Position numbers and translations under genes: made by a program
In this document: piece by piece, positions 2,769-60,215 of the stretch
Layout: every line of letters begins with the position of its first letter
How positions within the stretch are numbered: the stretch's first letter is position 1
The notes under the pieces: model-generated
Seen by the model: the letters and a program-made list of their open reading frames with translations, nothing else
Databases searched by the model: none
Told to the model about the DNA's origin: nothing
Virus record (IMG/VR): IMGVR_UViG_2660238384_000003
Coordinates: 62,001 to 123,700 of that record
From: an uncultured virus (IMG/VR IMGVR_UViG_2660238384_000003)
Taxonomy: Duplodnaviria > Heunggongvirae > Uroviricota > Caudoviricetes
DNA: 61,700 nt
Reading direction: 5' to 3' (one strand)

Positions 2769-4001
2769 TCAGCCCTCAGCCAGCTCCCGCTGATCCAGAA
2801 AATCAGCCCAGGCCTGCATCATTTCCCTTCGCTTTTCCACATGTGCAGCATGGTTATAAGCCGCCCTGGCCTTACTCGGATCCGCATGTGACAGTTGCCC
2901 CTCAATCAACGTCGTGTCGTAGCCCATTTCATGCAGCGCAGTGGAGAAAGTCCCTCGCAACCCATGACCAGTCAGCAGCCCATCGAACCCAAGGCGCTTG
3001 ATCGCCTGGTTGATGGTGTTCTCGCTCATCATCTTCGTCGGATCATTTCGACCTGCGAACGCGAACGGGTATTTTCCCGTCTTCTGCAGCAACCGCCTGA
3101 CCTCCTCAATCGCTTGCCGCGACAGCGGCACGATGTACGGAGGTACCTCTTCCCCGTCCTTGCGCACCTTGCCGCGCAATTGCTTCACCCTTCCGGGCGG
3201 GACAGTCCATATCCCCTTTTCTAGATCGAAGTCTGCCGGCGCAGCCTTTCGAAGCTCGATCGTACGTACCGCGGTCAGAAGCATCAGACGAACGGCGATC
3301 CTTGTGATCTCGGACCCCTGGTAAGACCGCAGTCTCACAAGAAGGGCTGGAAGCTCTTCGCCATCATGCGCAAGAATCGGATTGTGCTCAGTCGGCGGCT
3401 GTTCTTTCGCCAGAATGTCCAGGTCCGAGGCAGGGTTGTCCTCTCGTAATCCGGCCGCGATCCCAACGCGGAAGATCTGGCGTAACCAACTCCGCGCCTT
3501 CTCCGCGACGTGCAGCGCTCCCCGGCGCTCGATGGCTCCGACAACCGCAGCCAGGTCACGACGGTGAATTTCGCGAAACTTCATATTCGCCAGGGCCGGG
3601 TATAGGTCATTGTCCAATACTCTGCGCGCCTGGTTTGCGCTGCCTTTCCGGCTATCGTCCGCCCAGCGCCCCTGTTTCAACTCCAGCCACTGTTCAGCCA
3701 CGTGTCGAAACGTCTCCTCGACGCTGACCGTCTTCCGGTCCGCTCGATGCTGCCCCCGCGGATCGATACCTTGGGCCACCAACGAACGCGCCTCGTCACG
3801 GCGCTGCCGGGCATCACGCAGGCTCAACTCGGGATACGTCCCAAACGACACTCGCTTCTGCTGGCCATTCAGCGAAAAGCGGAAGTGCCAGCTTTTGGTG
3901 CCCTTGTGAGAAACGAAGAGAGAGAGGCCGTCAATGTCGGCGAGGGTGTAGTCTTTAGCTTCTGCTTTTGCCTGGCGGACAGCAGTATCCGTGAGCGGCA
4001 T
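2769..4001 (-). CDS. P4-family tyrosine integrase of a tRNA-Leu genomic island
   Basis: MPLTDTAVRQAK..DGLSLFV..FGTYPELSL arm-binding domain; TAVRTIE, HGLR, LSH, AYN catalytic motifs. Confidence 0.95.
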   Translation of the reverse strand: MPLTDTAVRQAKAEAKDYTLADIDGLSLFVSHKGTKSWHFRFSLNGQQKRVSFGTYPELSLRDARQRRDEARSLVAQGIDPRGQHRADRKTVSVEETFRHVAEQWLELKQGRWADDSRKGSANQARRVLDNDLYPALANMKFREIHRRDLAAVVGAIERRGALHVAEKARSWLRQIFRVGIAAGLREDNPASDLDILAKEQPPTEHNPILAHDGEELPALLVRLRSYQGSEITRIAVRLMLLTAVRTIELRKAAPADFDLEKGIWTVPPGRVKQLRGKVRKDGEEVPPYIVPLSRQAIEEVRRLLQKTGKYPFAFAGRNDPTKMMSENTINQAIKRLGFDGLLTGHGLRGTFSTALHEMGYDTTLIEGQLSHADPSKARAAYNHAAHVEKRREMMQAWADFLDQRELAEG

Positions 4002-31611: not shown

Positions 31612-31688
<77 letters not shown>

Positions 31689-40089: not shown

Positions 40090-40124
40090 GCTTTGTGGCC
40101 TCCCGGCCGGTAGATTGGATCGGG

Positions 40125-40325
40125 TTAGGCAACGGCCTTGGCGGAGTGAGATGGGAAGGCCTTAACCTCCTCAGCCGAGTAGGTTCCGTCTGCGTTTTCG
40201 GTGACATAGATGTCACGCCCGACCCGCAACGCCTTGTTCAGTGCGCCCTGGGTCAGTCCAAGCAGCGCAGCGGCCTTGGTCTGGCCCTTCTGGGCAGAAA
40301 ATTCTTTGAGAGGAATGCGGTGCAT
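40125..40325 (-). CDS. cro: Cro repressor
   Basis: GQTKAAALLGLTQGALNKA..GRDIYV..AEEVKAFPS is lambda Cro-like. Confidence 0.92.
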   Translation of the reverse strand: MHRIPLKEFSAQKGQTKAAALLGLTQGALNKALRVGRDIYVTENADGTYSAEEVKAFPSHSAKAVA

Positions 40326-40359
40326 AACCCAGGTCTCCATGGTTTATCCATGGACAAAG

Positions 40360-40427
40360 TATTGCCGGCGGTTATTTCAAAGTCAATGCCGGCGGCGATG
40401 GATACCTATCGCCTGCGGGAATACCCT
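40360..40427. promoter_or_regulatory. OR operators with PR and PRM
   Basis: 17-mers at 40360..40376, 40384..40400, 40407..40423; PR TTGACT-N17-AATACT (minus); PRM TGGATA-N17-TACCCT (plus). Confidence 0.8.
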
Positions 40428-40433
40428 TCGCAC

Positions 40434-41213
40434 ATGAGCGACAAGAAACGTGAAATCTCCCAGTGGGAGAAAGAGGAATGCGCCAAGCTGAAAGCTGCGC
40501 TGGAAGAATTCAACGCCGGGAAATCTCGGAAGGACAGCCTTACCCAGGGGAAAATCGCCGAGGCTCTCGACATGAGCCAGGGGTCCGTGAGCTCCTATCT
40601 CAACGGGTACAACGCGCTCAATGCGAGGTTTGCTTCGTACGTTGCCTCGCAAATCGGGATCCGTATCGAGTCATTCAGTGAACGGCTGGCAGCGGAAGTT
40701 GGGGAGATGGCCAAGGCTGTGCATGCAGAACCCGCAAAGGGGAATGTCATTTCTGCCGACTTTTCGAGGCAGAGGACAAAGAACGGGTTCATTGTCGTAC
40801 CCCAATACGATATCGCTGCCTCCATGGGGAAAGGCTTGGCGCGCCCAGAATTTGATGTCGTGATCGACTCGATTGTCGCAAGCGTCGACTATCTATCTCG
40901 CAACGTCAGATATTCAGCACCAGACAACCTCGCGCTAATCACGGGCTATGGCGACAGCATGCAGCCTACGTTTTCGGACGGAGACATCCTTCTAGTCGAT
41001 ACCGGCATCACTGAGATAAAGATAGATGCCGTCTACGTTATGGCCCTGAAGGATGAGCTTTACATCAAGCGGATGCAGCGAAGGGCAGATGGCACCTTTC
41101 TGATGATCTCAGACAACAACGCCTACCCACCAATCGAGGTATCCAGCGCCGAATTAAAAAGATTCCAGGTGCTCGCTAGGGTCCTGCTGGCCTGGAATGC
41201 GAAGAGACTGTGA
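40434..41213 (+). CDS. cI: CI repressor (HTH plus S24 autopeptidase)
   Basis: LTQGKIAEALDMSQGSVSSYLNG; GDSMQPT and YIKR catalytic Ser/Lys. Confidence 0.93.
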   Translation: MSDKKREISQWEKEECAKLKAALEEFNAGKSRKDSLTQGKIAEALDMSQGSVSSYLNGYNALNARFASYVASQIGIRIESFSERLAAEVGEMAKAVHAEPAKGNVISADFSRQRTKNGFIVVPQYDIAASMGKGLARPEFDVVIDSIVASVDYLSRNVRYSAPDNLALITGYGDSMQPTFSDGDILLVDTGITEIKIDAVYVMALKDELYIKRMQRRADGTFLMISDNNAYPPIEVSSAELKRFQVLARVLLAWNAKRL

Positions 41214-44379: not shown

Positions 44380-44475
44380 TATCTCCGGCGGTATTGACTT
44401 ATGTATATCCGGCGGCGATAGTTAATCCATAGCCGCAGCCAATACGCGGCCCAGGCCACCGAGCCGCGCTCTTTA
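44380..44475 (+). promoter_or_regulatory. OL operators, PL promoter and boxA
   Basis: 17-mers at 44380..44396, 44404..44420, 44428..44444; TTGACT-N17-GATAGT; CGCTCTTTA at 44467..44475. Confidence 0.8.
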
Positions 44476-47083: not shown

Positions 47084-47272
47084 ATGAGCAATTGGAGAAA
47101 GACGGCAGACGGCAATTTTCCGATGGATACCGACCTGCTCGGCAAGTGGAAGAACGGCCACATTGAAGATGTACGCTTCCACGATGACGGCGAAGACTTC
47201 ACCTATCACTCGCTGTATGACGGCGAGTCGTTCGATGAAGATCCTGAGTTCTGGATGCCGATTCCAGACTGA
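47084..47272 (+). CDS. DUF551-like small protein
   Basis: MSNW...FWMPIP; GGAGG SD; start position as given by ORF track. Confidence 0.6.
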   Translation: MSNWRKTADGNFPMDTDLLGKWKNGHIEDVRFHDDGEDFTYHSLYDGESFDEDPEFWMPIPD

Positions 47273-47301
47273 CTTCCCCGGCAAGGACGCCACCCTTCAA
47301 T

Positions 47302-47429
47302 GGGGATGAGTCCCGCGCAGCGGGAGATGTACTAGGTACCTGCGGACGTCACTGCTTCGGCATACGAAATGAGTCGCTGAATGGGTCCGCGCCAAGTCAG
47401 CCGCCGGTGAGAGTCCGGCCATCCCCACC
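47302..47429 (+). ncRNA. tRNA-like structured ncRNA candidate
   Basis: GGGGATG/CATCCCC 7-bp stem stacked on GCCGG-TGAGAGT-CCGGC, then ACC; internal hairpins. Confidence 0.55.
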
Positions 47430-47441
47430 CTACCCCTCTTA

Positions 47442-47466
47442 GCCCGGCAAGTCCGGGCATTTTTTC
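47442..47466 (+). terminator. Rho-independent terminator
   Basis: GCCCGG caagt CCGGGC ATTTTTT. Confidence 0.8.
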
Positions 47467-47527
47467 GCCTGTATGACGGGAGCGATTCGGAACGCTGCCG
47501 CATACGCGCGGCAAAGAGGTCAGAGAG

Positions 47528-47770
47528 ATGAGCATTCAAACCAAAGCGGCGACGATCTATTTCGCCCCTACTGCTCGGAAAAGTTTCATCACGAAACGCG
47601 CGGCTATCAACGCCGAGGCCAGGGCGATCATCAATAAGCACTTCCCTATTGAGCGCGGCTGCTCCTGCGGCTGCGGCGATCCTGGCTGGCGGCTTGAAGA
47701 GGCCAACCCCGAGCGCTTCGCGCGCTACTACCGGCTGCTTACCGTAGCGCTCAAGAGGACCATGCCATGA
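47528..47770 (+). CDS. Early hypothetical protein
   Basis: 80 aa, GAGG SD. Confidence 0.6.
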   Translation: MSIQTKAATIYFAPTARKSFITKRAAINAEARAIINKHFPIERGCSCGCGDPGWRLEEANPERFARYYRLLTVALKRTMP

Positions 47771-50572: not shown

Positions 50573-51319
50573 ATGGGAACTGCACTAACACCGCTCCTGA
50601 CGAAGTTCGCCACGCGCTACGAGATGGGTACCACGCCTGAAGAAGTGGCGAACACGCTCAAGCAGACCTGTTTCAAGGGCCAGGTCAATGATTCGCAGAT
50701 GGTCGCCCTGCTGATCGTGGCAGACCAGTACAAGCTGAACCCCTTCACCAAGGAGTTGTACGCATTCCCCGACAAGAACAACGGCATCGTGCCGGTTGTT
50801 GGTGTGGATGGCTGGGCTCGGATCATCAACGAGAACCCACAGTTCGATGGCATGGAATTCTCAATGGACCAGCAGGGCACCGAATGCACCTGCAAGATCT
50901 ATCGGAAGGACCGCAGCCATGCCATCAGCGCGACTGAGTACATGGCCGAGTGCAAGCGGAACACCCAGCCTTGGCAGTCCCATCCGCGCCGGATGCTTCG
51001 CCACAAGGCAATGATCCAGTGCGCACGCCTCGCGTTCGGGTTCGCCGGCATATACGACCAGGACGAGGCCGAGCGGATCGTTGAACGAGACGTCACTCCC
51101 GCAGAACAGTACGAGGACGTCAGCGAGGCGGTCTGCCTGATCAAGGACTCCCCAACAATGGAAGACTTGCAGGCAGCATTCAGCAATGCCTGGAAAGCCT
51201 ACAAGACAAAGGGCGCGCGCGACCAGCTTACGGCGGCCAAGGACCAGCGGAAGAAAGAACTTCTGGAGGCACCTATCGACGTTGAATTCGAGGAGACCGG
51301 CGATGATCGAGCAGCGTAG
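50573..51319 (+). CDS. bet: Red beta single-strand annealing recombinase
   Basis: LNPFTKELYAFPDK..VVGVDGW..PWQSHPRRMLRHKAMIQCARLAFGF. Confidence 0.95.
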   Translation: MGTALTPLLTKFATRYEMGTTPEEVANTLKQTCFKGQVNDSQMVALLIVADQYKLNPFTKELYAFPDKNNGIVPVVGVDGWARIINENPQFDGMEFSMDQQGTECTCKIYRKDRSHAISATEYMAECKRNTQPWQSHPRRMLRHKAMIQCARLAFGFAGIYDQDEAERIVERDVTPAEQYEDVSEAVCLIKDSPTMEDLQAAFSNAWKAYKTKGARDQLTAAKDQRKKELLEAPIDVEFEETGDDRAA

Positions 51320-51929
51320 TGATGAATGGTTCGCACAGCGCCTGGGGCGGGTGACTGCCAGCAAGGTCAAGGATGTGATGGCAAAGGGGCGCAGTGGCGC
51401 CCCTTCTGCTACCCGCCAGAACTACATGATGCAGCTCCTGTGCGAGCGCTTGACCGGCAAGCGCGAGGAAGGATTCACCAGCGCCGCAATGCAGCGTGGT
51501 ACCGACCTGGAGCCGATTGCTCGCTCGGCCTACGAGTTCAATGCAGGCGTAATGACGATCGAAACAGGCCTGATCATCCATCCGCGAATCGATGGATTTG
51601 CCGCGTCGCCAGATGGCCTCGCGGGGGAGCATGGGCTCGTCGAGATTAAATGCCCGTCTACCGCAACCCACATCTACACGATGCAGTCGGGCAAGCACGA
51701 CCCACAGTACGAGTGGCAGATGCTCGCCCAAATGTCATGCAGCGGCCGCGAGTGGGTCGACTTTGTGAGCTTCGACGACCGTCTGCCTGATGAATTGCAG
51801 TACGTGTGCTTCCGCTATCACCGCGACGAGGCACGCATCCGCGAGATGGAGGCTGAGGTTATGGCGTTCCTGGAAGAGCTGGCAGAGCTTGAACATCAGA
51901 TGCGAGAGCGCATGAGGAAAGCAGCATGA
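51303..51929 (+). CDS. exo: Lambda exonuclease/YqaJ family
   Basis: QRSDEWFAQRLGRVTAS, ASPDGL, EIKCP, QMLAQM. Confidence 0.93.
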   Translation: MIEQRSDEWFAQRLGRVTASKVKDVMAKGRSGAPSATRQNYMMQLLCERLTGKREEGFTSAAMQRGTDLEPIARSAYEFNAGVMTIETGLIIHPRIDGFAASPDGLAGEHGLVEIKCPSTATHIYTMQSGKHDPQYEWQMLAQMSCSGREWVDFVSFDDRLPDELQYVCFRYHRDEARIREMEAEVMAFLEELAELEHQMRERMRKAA

Positions 51930-58905: not shown

Positions 58906-59220
58906 ATGTCTTTGATTTCAGTTGAGGCGGCCGCCGGCATTCTCGGCGTGAGCCGCAGGACCGCGTACCGCTACGCGGACGAAAAGCTGATCCCGGTGGT
59001 CAGGTTCAAAAAGACCATCCGGGTACACAAGGAAAAGCTCGAACAGATGCTTGAAGAGGAAGCCGCTGCTAGCATGCGCGACGCGGTCGGCGTACCGGAG
59101 GAAGTATGCCGTACAAGAGAAACGACTCCGCCTACTGGTGGATCTCTTTCAAATCAGCAACAGGAAAGCTTGTTAGACGCTCTTCTGGAACTGCCGACTA
59201 CTCGGCGGCGAAAGCACTAG
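58906..59220 (+). CDS. xis: Excisionase (HTH)
   Basis: ISVEAAAGILGVSRRTAYRY..IPVVRF; overlaps the start of int. Confidence 0.8.
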   Translation: MSLISVEAAAGILGVSRRTAYRYADEKLIPVVRFKKTIRVHKEKLEQMLEEEAAASMRDAVGVPEEVCRTRETTPPTGGSLSNQQQESLLDALLELPTTRRRKH

Positions 59221-60215
59221 AGCAACAGGAGCGCGCGAAAGCGTGGAAGGAAAAGGAGATGGGCGTTAATCCGCCCAGGACCTTTGAGGAGGTGATCATT
59301 CCGTACCTGCAGCACGCTCGCCAGCATCAGCGCAGCTACGAAACGACCGTGCACCGCATAAAGCCGCTGCGCGAGTATTTTGCCGGACGCGTGGTCAACG
59401 ATCTAGGGGGCCAGGACATCCGGGGATACGGAGCGCATCGGTTGGATGCCGGCGCATCCCCGGCAACCATCAACCGAGAACTCGCCGCACTGTCCGCGGC
59501 GATCAACCACTGCAACACGGAACTGGAGTGGGCCCTTCCTAACCCGGTGAAGGGACGGAAGATGCGCGAGGCCGAGGGGCGTGATCGTTGGCTGACCAGA
59601 GCAGAGGTCGAGGCCCTGTGCCGCGCCGCGCGCGTCCAGAAGTTTGGCCCGATGCTCGAGGACTTCATCCGCCTAGCGGTGAACACCGGATGCCGGCGGG
59701 AGGAAATGCTTGGCCTGGAGTGGCGCAGAGTGGATTTCGCCAATCGACTGATCTACTTGGAGGCATCCCACACGAAGGCAGGCAAGCGCCGGAGCATCCC
59801 GATCAACGAAGGGGCGATGGCAGCACTAAAGCGACGAATGGCATTCAGGTCCGAGACCAGCCCGGAATGCCCCTGGGTCTTTGCGCGCGCTAACGGTGAT
59901 CGAGTGGTATCGCTTTCGGCCGGCTTCAAGCAGGCCTGCCAGGCAGCGAAGATTGCGGACTTTACGATTCACGACCTGCGCCACACCTGCGCGGCATGGC
60001 TGGTAAGCGCCGGCGTTCCGTTGGCGGATGTACGGGATCTGCTCGGACACTCGACAGTCGCGATGACTGAGCGATATGCCCACCTTGCTCCGGCTAGGGT
60101 AAGGGATGCGGTTGGGGTTCTTGATCAAGTCCGTGAAAGTCGCATTTCACGTTCTGTTCACGTTGATAATCCAGCGCATCTACATGGAGGGTCGCTGAAG
60201 CTCGTAAACACTTGA
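59106..60215 (+). CDS. int: Prophage tyrosine integrase
   Basis: NTGCRREE, TKAGK, HDLRH, LLGH..TERY; ends 9 bp before att. Confidence 0.96.
   Translation: MPYKRNDSAYWWISFKSATGKLVRRSSGTADYSAAKALEQQERAKAWKEKEMGVNPPRTFEEVIIPYLQHARQHQRSYETTVHRIKPLREYFAGRVVNDLGGQDIRGYGAHRLDAGASPATINRELAALSAAINHCNTELEWALPNPVKGRKMREAEGRDRWLTRAEVEALCRAARVQKFGPMLEDFIRLAVNTGCRREEMLGLEWRRVDFANRLIYLEASHTKAGKRRSIPINEGAMAALKRRMAFRSETSPECPWVFARANGDRVVSLSAGFKQACQAAKIADFTIHDLRHTCAAWLVSAGVPLADVRDLLGHSTVAMTERYAHLAPARVRDAVGVLDQVRESRISRSVHVDNPAHLHGGSLKLVNT

Follow-up and report, generated by a model that had tools for sequence, protein, structure and literature searches.

A structured-RNA cassette with an invariant outer stem and an exchangeable middle in the early left operon of Pseudomonas phages

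Introduction

What is a small phage RNA element that has the top half of a tRNA, a large domain at the position of the anticodon arm, and a strong terminator directly behind it? The question is raised by positions 47302-47429 of a 61,700-nucleotide stretch of DNA (the window), which covers positions 62,001 to 123,700 of the 123.7-kb contig of an uncultured virus (IMG/VR record IMGVR_UViG_2660238384_000003) and holds a lambdoid prophage of the Pseudomonas aeruginosa type. A first-pass annotation, made from the letters alone, described a tRNA-mimic RNA here and proposed that it is a stable RNA processed by RNase P, serving either as a decoy for tRNA-targeting defences or as a scaffold for an antisense domain. 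We followed up this proposal with the element itself and with the segment from its leader to its terminator (47273-47465). The element is a real, strand-specific structured-RNA cassette, and its family lies outside Rfam. Its frame is fixed and its middle is a swappable cassette, a property that the first-pass annotation had missed. It has the look of a rapidly changing accessory RNA, not of a tRNA. Full-text searches of the literature gave no description of it.

A fixed frame around an exchangeable middle

The element is 128 nt long and lies on the strand of the operon (+). The parts of the frame and of the middle in the window are given here, 5' to 3'.

47273-47301, +: conserved 5' leader CTTCCCCGGCAAGGACGCCACCCTTCAAT, directly after the stop codon (47270-47272) of the upstream open reading frame (ORF); it ends in AAU, which places a U at position -1 (47301)
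47302-47308, +: 5' strand of the outer stem (the clamp), GGGGAUG; G47302 would be the +1 residue for RNase P
47311-47325, +: hairpin 1, UCCCGC-GCA-GCGGGA (6 bp), two bases (AG) past the clamp, at the position of a D arm
47326-47402, +: central domain of the payload; GCGGAC (47342-47347) pairs with GUCCGC (47385-47390) and encloses CTTCGG (47355-47360), the inner pairing being uncertain
47403-47419, +: T-arm-like hairpin GCCGG (47403-47407)-UGAGAGU (47408-47414)-CCGGC (47415-47419), stacked without a gap on the clamp
47420-47426, +: 3' strand of the clamp, CAUCCCC, with 7/7 Watson-Crick pairs to 47302-47308
47427-47429, +: A-C-C, at the position of the discriminator, C74 and C75; the next base is C, not A
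47430-47441, +: C-rich unpaired linker CUACCCCUCUUA, the site of "slot 2" insertions (a second RNA or a small ORF) in other phages
47442-47465, +: intrinsic terminator GCCCGG-CAAGU-CCGGGC followed by A and U6; the hairpin (47442-47458) has six G-C pairs and a 5-nt loop, and T6 occupies 47460-47465

All of the features that the first-pass annotation had described (the 7-bp stem, the 5-bp stem with its 7-nt loop, A-CC, the hairpin after two nucleotides, GCGGAC..GTCCGC and the terminator) are present where it had placed them. The terminator combines a G+C-rich hairpin with a U run and heads the list of terminators in the window. The part that proves exchangeable in relatives is 47309-47402.

Sixty named Pseudomonas phage records match the query, and only two of them (phi1 and P7869) cover at least 80% of it, that is, match through the middle. 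For the remaining named phages, JBD44, Ab31 and PAJU2 among them, the match is broken into two or three pieces; their flanks agree with the query, and another sequence stands in the middle. In three named phages that we read base by base, the conserved parts are a leader of about 30 nt, both strands of the stem, ACC, the C-rich linker, and the terminator together with the leader of the following gene; between the stem strands the sequences are unrelated. The leader begins exactly at the stop codon of the upstream gene, whichever gene that is, and it is kept although the ends of the upstream ORFs differ. The flanks are conserved for about 39 nt 5' of the middle and for more than 60 nt 3' of it.

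Two scans of viral contigs extended this picture. The first used the leader pattern, which requires the 5' strand of the stem, and returned 87 stretches. Together with the three named phages and the window these make 91 sources, of which 90 hold a complete element and the remaining one is cut by a contig end; the set comprises 39 distinct sequences in 18 k-mer clusters. The second scan was anchored on the terminator alone, with the stem not required and then sought within 700 nt upstream. Both clamp strands (GGGGAUG/CAUCCCC), with U before and ACC after, were found in 95 of its 103 stretches. Three others have a one-base variant of the 5' strand (one keeps G-U pairing, two give a mismatch), two are cut, one is interrupted by an insertion with inverted ends, and two (L232 and L238) are without the slot. 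AAU precedes the stem in all 98 terminator-anchored loci with a readable 5' strand. The two scans share contigs, so their counts are not additive; taken together they hold 55 distinct elements of 55-176 nt in 19 k-mer clusters, and the element always lies about 14 nt ahead of the same strong terminator. L238 shows a clean deletion, and because this phage lacks the element, the element is dispensable.

Each payload type is itself conserved over many contigs. The type found in the window comprises eight distinct sequences, one of them a deletion derivative, and all 14 of its viral matches occur in the context of the element. A metagenome scan for this payload gave two matches, both due to chance.

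The locus also takes up sequence outside the clamp. Some phages have tandem clamped units with a small ORF between them, and the second copies keep only ...AAAT before the stem; in many phages the linker carries an insertion in slot 2, either a second RNA or a small ORF. In the Ab31-type phages (L003, L005, L035, L080, L228, L232 and L238), slot 2, between the linker of the clamp and the terminator, is filled by another structured RNA, about 190 nt long and closed by a long outer stem of its own; it can be present where slot 1 is missing. In some phages, small acidic ORFs with a low G+C content lie in slot 2 or between two clamped RNAs (L030:3694-3885, -; L054:4108-4332, +; and their equivalents). 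Searched against Pfam and PHROGs, one of the slot-2 ORFs belongs to DUF7167/phrog_7018 and the other has no family match. The interrupted locus mentioned above (L016 and L158, from the same viral contig) has an insertion with inverted ends CAATGTCATCAAC / GTTGATGACATTG that splits the linker between clamp and terminator; this insertion is probably an insertion sequence whose target was the C-rich linker.

Evidence for RNA structure across the family

The outer stem, of 6-7 bp, is kept in the unconstrained minimum free energy (MFE) fold of all 39 distinct sequences from the first scan. Because relatives keep it both in these folds and in 95 of the 103 loci that were found without regard to the stem, the element has more structure than expected by chance. 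A simple hairpin of 4-6 bp lies 0-1 nt from the 3' strand of the clamp in 23 of the 39 sequences (11 of 18 clusters); its stem may be GCCGG/CCGGC, GCCUG/CAGGC, GCCUGG/CCAGGC or GCCG/CGGC, with loops of 3-9 nt. A longer branched helix abuts the clamp in five more sequences, and the simplest type is a plain extended hairpin of 65 nt. Among representatives of the 18 types, fold z-scores range from -0.77 to -5.43, and for 12 of the 18 none of 200 shuffles was as good. The operon strand folds better than its complement in 17 of 19 representatives.

Compensatory changes are found within some payloads. The L028 type has two such pairs, 51/80 (UA 4, CG 4) and 54/77 (UA 4, GC 3), and in the commonest type a CGC-UACG-GCG hairpin is replaced by CUC-UACG-GAG, as read by eye. 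In the window's own type there is one compensatory pair, C-G to A-U in hairpin 1 (L050), and the structure proposed in the first-pass annotation is 97.7% paired over the eight sequences, which are 97% identical. Pair 45/85 of the GCGGAC/GUCCGC helix is unpaired in four of these eight sequences, and UUCG is changed to UUAG in two variants.

The unconstrained MFE fold of 47302-47429 (-54.3 kcal/mol) recovers the outer stem, hairpin 1, the GCGGAC/GUCCGC helix and the 3' hairpin. To this extent it agrees with the fold drawn in the first-pass annotation; the C-UUCG-G hairpin of that drawing is absent from it. We consider hairpin 1, the clamp and the 3' hairpin credible, and the inner fold of the window's payload not established.

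A payload type of 130-140 nt (L028, L073, L013, L036 and relatives) has a hypervariable inner hairpin in which the stem changes are compensatory. The loops of this hairpin are rich in CUCC/UCCUCC, complementary to Shine-Dalgarno-like sequences, and a matching target was not identified.

tRNA likeness and RNase P features

In the window, the element shares with tRNA and with the tRNA-like domain of tmRNA a terminal stem of 7 bp stacked on a stem of 5 bp that closes a 7-nt loop, two linking nucleotides before the next hairpin, and a discriminator followed by CC. It differs from them in having no D-loop, anticodon arm, canonical T-loop sequence or tag reading frame: a hairpin of 6 bp with a 3-nt loop stands at the D position, a domain of about 72 nt stands at the anticodon position, and the loop is UGAGAGU rather than of the UUCGAAU type. 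ARAGORN called four tRNAs in the window, none at 47302-47429, and no tmRNA; on 12 relatives it called no gene. At the gathering score (29 bits for the tRNA model, RF00005), Rfam gave no match at the element in the window and none on the element in 18 relatives. With the E-value threshold relaxed to 10, a search of 47200-47560 returned no tRNA, tmRNA or C4, and weak matches (Yfr1 at E 0.083, and others) fell on the terminator. The Rfam comparison proposed with the first-pass annotation therefore yields no family for the element, and its statement that this 128-nt RNA is neither a canonical tRNA nor a tmRNA is confirmed.

The ends of the element resemble those of RNase P substrates. According to the review PMC11143913, hairpins consisting of acceptor stem, T stem and T loop are model substrates, the 12-bp stack is a measuring device for the enzyme, base pairs form between residues 73-75 and GGU in the P15 loop, contacts are made to the -1 residue and to G+1/C72, and phage M3 RNA and C4 RNA are listed among the natural substrates. 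The determinants named there are found in the element: 7+5 stacked base pairs, U-1 (47301), a G+1-C72 pair and A-C-C. U47301 could also pair with A47427. The RNase P-processed RNA of the first-pass annotation thus has the expected substrate features, while cleavage itself is a prediction from the letters. The 7-nt loop occurs in seven variants from three clusters, all with U1, G2, A3, R4 and A5 and with differences at positions 6 and 7; judged by the general T-loop motif, this pattern would presumably be tolerable for a T-loop fold.

One relative (L017) carries in slot 2 (3738-3873, -), after the clamped RNA, a tRNA-like cloverleaf that scores 29.9 bits against the Rfam tRNA model (threshold 29) and is not called by ARAGORN. 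Its T arm is canonical, its anticodon loop reads CCCUUAA, its D region is enlarged by about 45 inserted nucleotides, and it ends in ACCA. Genes of tRNA type thus do live in this locus.

Targets, linked sequences and RNA libraries

In searches for antisense targets that scored perfect matches only, with short kissing contacts outside their scope, the longest complements to the payload within the 4-kb flanks of the 39 sequences were 8-12 nt, the same as in the sense-strand control, and the longest in the whole 123.7-kb contig was 12 nt, equal to the shuffle median. A copy of the element in Pseudomonas nitroreducens, compared by BLAST on both strands with the rest of its 7.1-Mb genome, gave nothing significant (E 0.33 or worse). 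In the four largest payload types we found no type-specific linked 21-mers within 4 kb on either side, and the two small types that do have linked 21-mers are near-clonal. Payload and neighbours therefore reassort independently, and where the repressor is in range this holds for it as well. The idea of a scaffold for an antisense domain with a phage target, put forward in the first-pass annotation, did not hold up in these comparisons.

RNA data consisted of contigs from three RNA libraries and one raw-read run. In two of the libraries, each from a different study, contigs (mean depths 136 and 79) run across the locus of related prophages with other payloads; where the window has its middle, they have 45 and 67 letters. 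The contig of the third library is short and lies on the downstream gene, and the raw-read run had no read on the locus. A small-RNA-seq time course of PA14 infected with JBD44 exists and is described in the methods of PMC11898732.

A dispersed repeat resembling the flanks

A run of 19 bases that includes the 3' strand of the clamp and the linker was scanned in species-representative genomes and occurred in 35 stretches, against about four expected by chance for a pattern of this length in a collection of this size. Thirty of these belong to a dispersed palindromic repeat, mostly of Betaproteobacteria (L092-L125), and only one, in P. nitroreducens, is the phage element. Copies of the repeat consist of GGGGATGGG, a variable centre of 16-40 nt and CCCATCCCC, with a CCCCTT-N-AAGGGG hairpin after the shared 19 bases. 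Three Oxalobacteraceae genomes (G002-G004) hold 8, 12 and 29 copies. The repeat is without an Rfam family. Its core had no match in the P. nitroreducens genome, and reversed-pattern controls also gave none.

The Oxalobacteraceae repeat shares with the element a GGGGATG...CATCCCC core around a variable centre, the same 19 bases after the stem and a leader-like left arm. The phage leader aligns with the left arm of the repeat (CTTCCCC..CAAGG...TGGGGATG) with a score of 14.5, the best of 200 shuffles reaching 13.0. The two differ in that the repeat is a long hairpin present in 8-29 copies per genome, with centres of 16-40 nt and flanking CCCCTT-N-AAGGGG hairpins, whereas the phage element is single-copy, has payloads of up to 176 nt, has lost the pairing of the outer arms and ends in a terminator. 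Miniature inverted-repeat transposable elements (MITEs) and other dispersed repeats have many copies and terminal inverted repeats; the element occurs once in the 123.7-kb contig, and in the P. nitroreducens genome only the prophage copy matches it by BLAST. Given these resemblances, a repeat of this kind may be the ancestor of the clamp and its flanks. This lowers confidence in the processing step discussed below and supports the explanation of the element as cis-acting or a relic. A likeness of the clamp to a CRISPR repeat was considered and dropped, as the polarity of the stem strands does not fit.

Discussion

The explanation that we favour, tentatively and at a little under an even chance, is that an exchangeable RNA payload, freed and made stable by a clamp of RNase P type, acts in trans. 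The structured non-coding RNA cassette would be transcribed with the early left operon of the prophage. Its invariant clamp, consisting of the 7-bp stem, usually a short hairpin on the 3' strand, U before and A-C-C after, imitates the acceptor/T-arm half of a pre-tRNA, and we infer that RNase P would cut before G47302. The 3' end might arise by trimming to ACC(C) or from the terminator 14 nt downstream, giving a stable RNA of about 128 nt, or of about 165 nt with the terminator. The clamp would then be a scaffold for processing and stability, and the middle (47309-47402) the payload, in whose place sister phages have unrelated folds. The payload would bind a factor of the host or of a rival phage, as an accessory function of the arms-race type. 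Action in trans appears the most likely mode because neither an antisense target nor a linked partner was found nearby and the payload reassorts freely. A further-reaching form of this idea, which we regard as unlikely, is a natural "tRNA-scaffold display", in which the clamp would allow any of at least 19 unrelated aptamer-like payloads to be cut from the early transcript and made stable; phages would exchange the payloads by recombination in the conserved flanks, and each would neutralise a different host-defence or rival-phage factor.

Several observations weigh against release and action in trans. No RNA end has been observed. Neither a 5' nor a 3' end can be read from the RNA-library contigs, DNA could be their source, and one of them runs through the terminator; they are neither proof of transcription nor evidence on processing. 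The encoded 3' end is ACCC, not ACCA. The exact tRNA geometry of the first-pass annotation (a 5-bp stem with a 7-nt U-G-A-R-A-N-Y loop) holds for the window's element but is found in only 3 of 18 clusters, the other types having stems of 4-7 bp with loops of 3-9 nt, or a plain extended hairpin; it is therefore a property of some types and not of the family. The clamp is invariant and so is without covariation of its own, and the conservation of clamp and ACC could be that of conserved recombination flanks. The acceptor-like look, ACC included, may have been inherited from a repeat and not selected for RNase P. The window's own fold barely beats chance (z = -1.95; 5 of 200 shuffles equally stable), and five predicted pairs of its central domain are broken in at least one variant of its type. 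The covariation that had been suggested as a check occurs within payloads of the L028 type, but the one compensatory pair of the window's type, in hairpin 1, is matched by 225 of 500 shuffles and is not significant. Finally, L238 has lost the element altogether.

It is possible, though doubtful, that the element instead acts in cis, as an operon RNA module derived from the palindromic repeat. Clamp fold and terminator would then act on the polycistronic mRNA itself, by protecting a 3' end, by an intercistronic cut, or by tuned read-through into bet, exo and int, and payload diversity would reflect turnover of the apical hairpin. The constant position about 14 nt before one strong terminator, with the operon continuing downstream, fits such a module, as do the simplest type, which is merely a 65-nt extended hairpin, the exact 19-mer of the 3' flank that is common to the dispersed repeat, the resemblance of the leader to the left arm of the repeat, and the lack of a trans target in the 123.7-kb contig and in the P. 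nitroreducens genome. Multibranch payloads of 100-176 nt, with z-scores to -5.4 and internal compensatory changes, nevertheless exceed what a stabilising hairpin needs; the payload types reassort independently of both neighbouring genes; and the repeat is absent from the window's contig and, outside the prophage, from the P. nitroreducens genome. Similar facts about the flanks would suit an improbable alternative without any function at the RNA level, in which the flanks are recombination linkers or a decayed insertion of a mobile repeat and the middle is neutral filler swapped by homologous recombination: flanks of about 39 nt (5') and more than 60 nt (3') are conserved around a replaced middle, they resemble a dispersed repeat, and L238 has a deletion of the slot, which L232 does not have either. 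Neutral filler does not account for the strand bias of folding (17 of 19), the strong z-scores of unrelated payloads, the compensatory changes or the conservation of each payload type over many contigs.

The decoy proposed in the first-pass annotation is in keeping with the acceptor-like clamp and ACC, which the family conserves. An acceptor/T-arm mimic could soak up toxins that attack tRNA ends, or the payload could mimic a targeted RNA; the loop varies as a T-loop would, keeping U1, R4 and A5, a tRNA-like gene with a CCCUUAA anticodon loop occupies the neighbouring slot of L017, and the locus shows the hypervariability that is common among counter-defence loci. We nonetheless give this explanation little credence, as the window's RNA has no mimic of an anticodon stem-loop and no match to the tRNA model even at E up to 10, the T-like loop is missing from most types, a pure acceptor decoy would not need 19 payloads, and the window encodes no tRNA-repair or related enzyme. 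Least probable, and disfavoured, is an antisense regulator of the C4/CI type, a processed RNA that pairs with sites in its own operon and controls downstream expression or immunity as in P1/P7 and P4. The logic is shared, in that a small structured RNA lies in a phage regulatory operon with ends of RNase P type and a terminator just downstream. Yet there is no C4 match in Rfam at E up to 10, complements are at control level both in the 4-kb flanks (8-12 nt) and in the 123.7-kb contig (12 nt), and the four largest types have no type-specific linked k-mers.

Small phage RNAs matured by RNase P (C4, CI and M3) have been known for decades; to our knowledge their number is small, and each of them is one unchanging molecule. 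The C4 antisense RNA of P1/P7 and the CI RNA of P4 (Rfam RF01695) are small structured RNAs of phage regulatory operons with stem-closed ends and a tRNA-like 3' context, released from a longer transcript without a promoter of their own, and in these respects they are like the element. The element differs from C4 in matching neither the covariance model nor, by complementarity, sites in the operon, and its middle is swapped between unrelated folds, whereas C4/CI RNAs tune a few loop bases. M3 RNA comes from the lambdoid phage phi80, and the tRNA cluster of T4 encodes the stable "species 1 and 2" RNAs; by description these too are small stable phage RNAs without a known function that are matured by the tRNA-processing machinery. 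We know of no RNA of the M3 or T4 type that forms a hypervariable cassette with an invariant clamp. In the engineered "tRNA scaffold" for recombinant RNA in bacteria, foreign RNA replaces the anticodon arm and the tRNA-processing enzymes release and protect it. That scaffold is a laboratory design with a full tRNA body, whereas the element imitates only the acceptor/T half and its processing is putative.

Unlike C4, CI and M3, the locus offers a slot in which one fixed clamp frames any of many unrelated structured payloads; it is carried by JBD44, Ab31, PAJU2 and phi1, P. aeruginosa phages in wide laboratory use. If the RNA is indeed processed and acts in trans, it would open a new reservoir of RNA-based accessory or counter-defence functions and provide a natural precedent for tRNA-scaffolded RNA expression; if tRNA-scaffold display were true, the locus would be the RNA counterpart of protein anti-defence islands. 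If it is instead a cis-acting relic of a palindromic repeat, the element is ordinary.

Prophage context and neighbouring features

The genes that define the operon around the element are the following.

40095-41213, +: CI-like repressor with an S24 peptidase domain
50573-51929, +: Bet- and Exo-like genes, downstream of the element
59106-60215, +: integrase, downstream of the element and adjoining a host tRNA cluster

Small genes without known function lie on the + strand between the repressor and the element, and the replication and virion genes are on the - strand. From this order and these strands, "early left operon", as used in the first-pass annotation, is a fair description, and its placement there of a non-coding structured RNA, on the same strand as the CI-like repressor, Bet/Exo and the integrase, is borne out. 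The operon runs on past the terminator. There is no sigma-70-like promoter near the element, the nearest one on the + strand being at 44394-44422. A small ORF that starts from an ATG overlapping the clamp was rejected, being short and without a Shine-Dalgarno sequence (read by eye).

The stretch from the terminator to the next gene (47467-47527) is also kept across phages, and a short distance ahead of the ribosome-binding site it has a small hairpin, AGCG-N8-CGCU. A second integrase gene (2769-4001, -) lies at the window's far end, and a tRNA-Gly gene (31613-31688, -) lies among the late genes. Near the start of the 123.7-kb record, a copy of tRNA-His (C1:561-636) mirrors the tRNA-Leu/His/Arg cluster beside the prophage integrase; together with the second integrase it may be a sign of elements in tandem or of a duplicated attachment site. 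Two relatives have, at other places in the same operon, Rfam matches to Proteo-phage-1 (45.8 bits; L064:2445-2524) and to DUF3800-VI (45.2 bits; L079:7961-8016), and further structured RNAs are thus found in such early regions.

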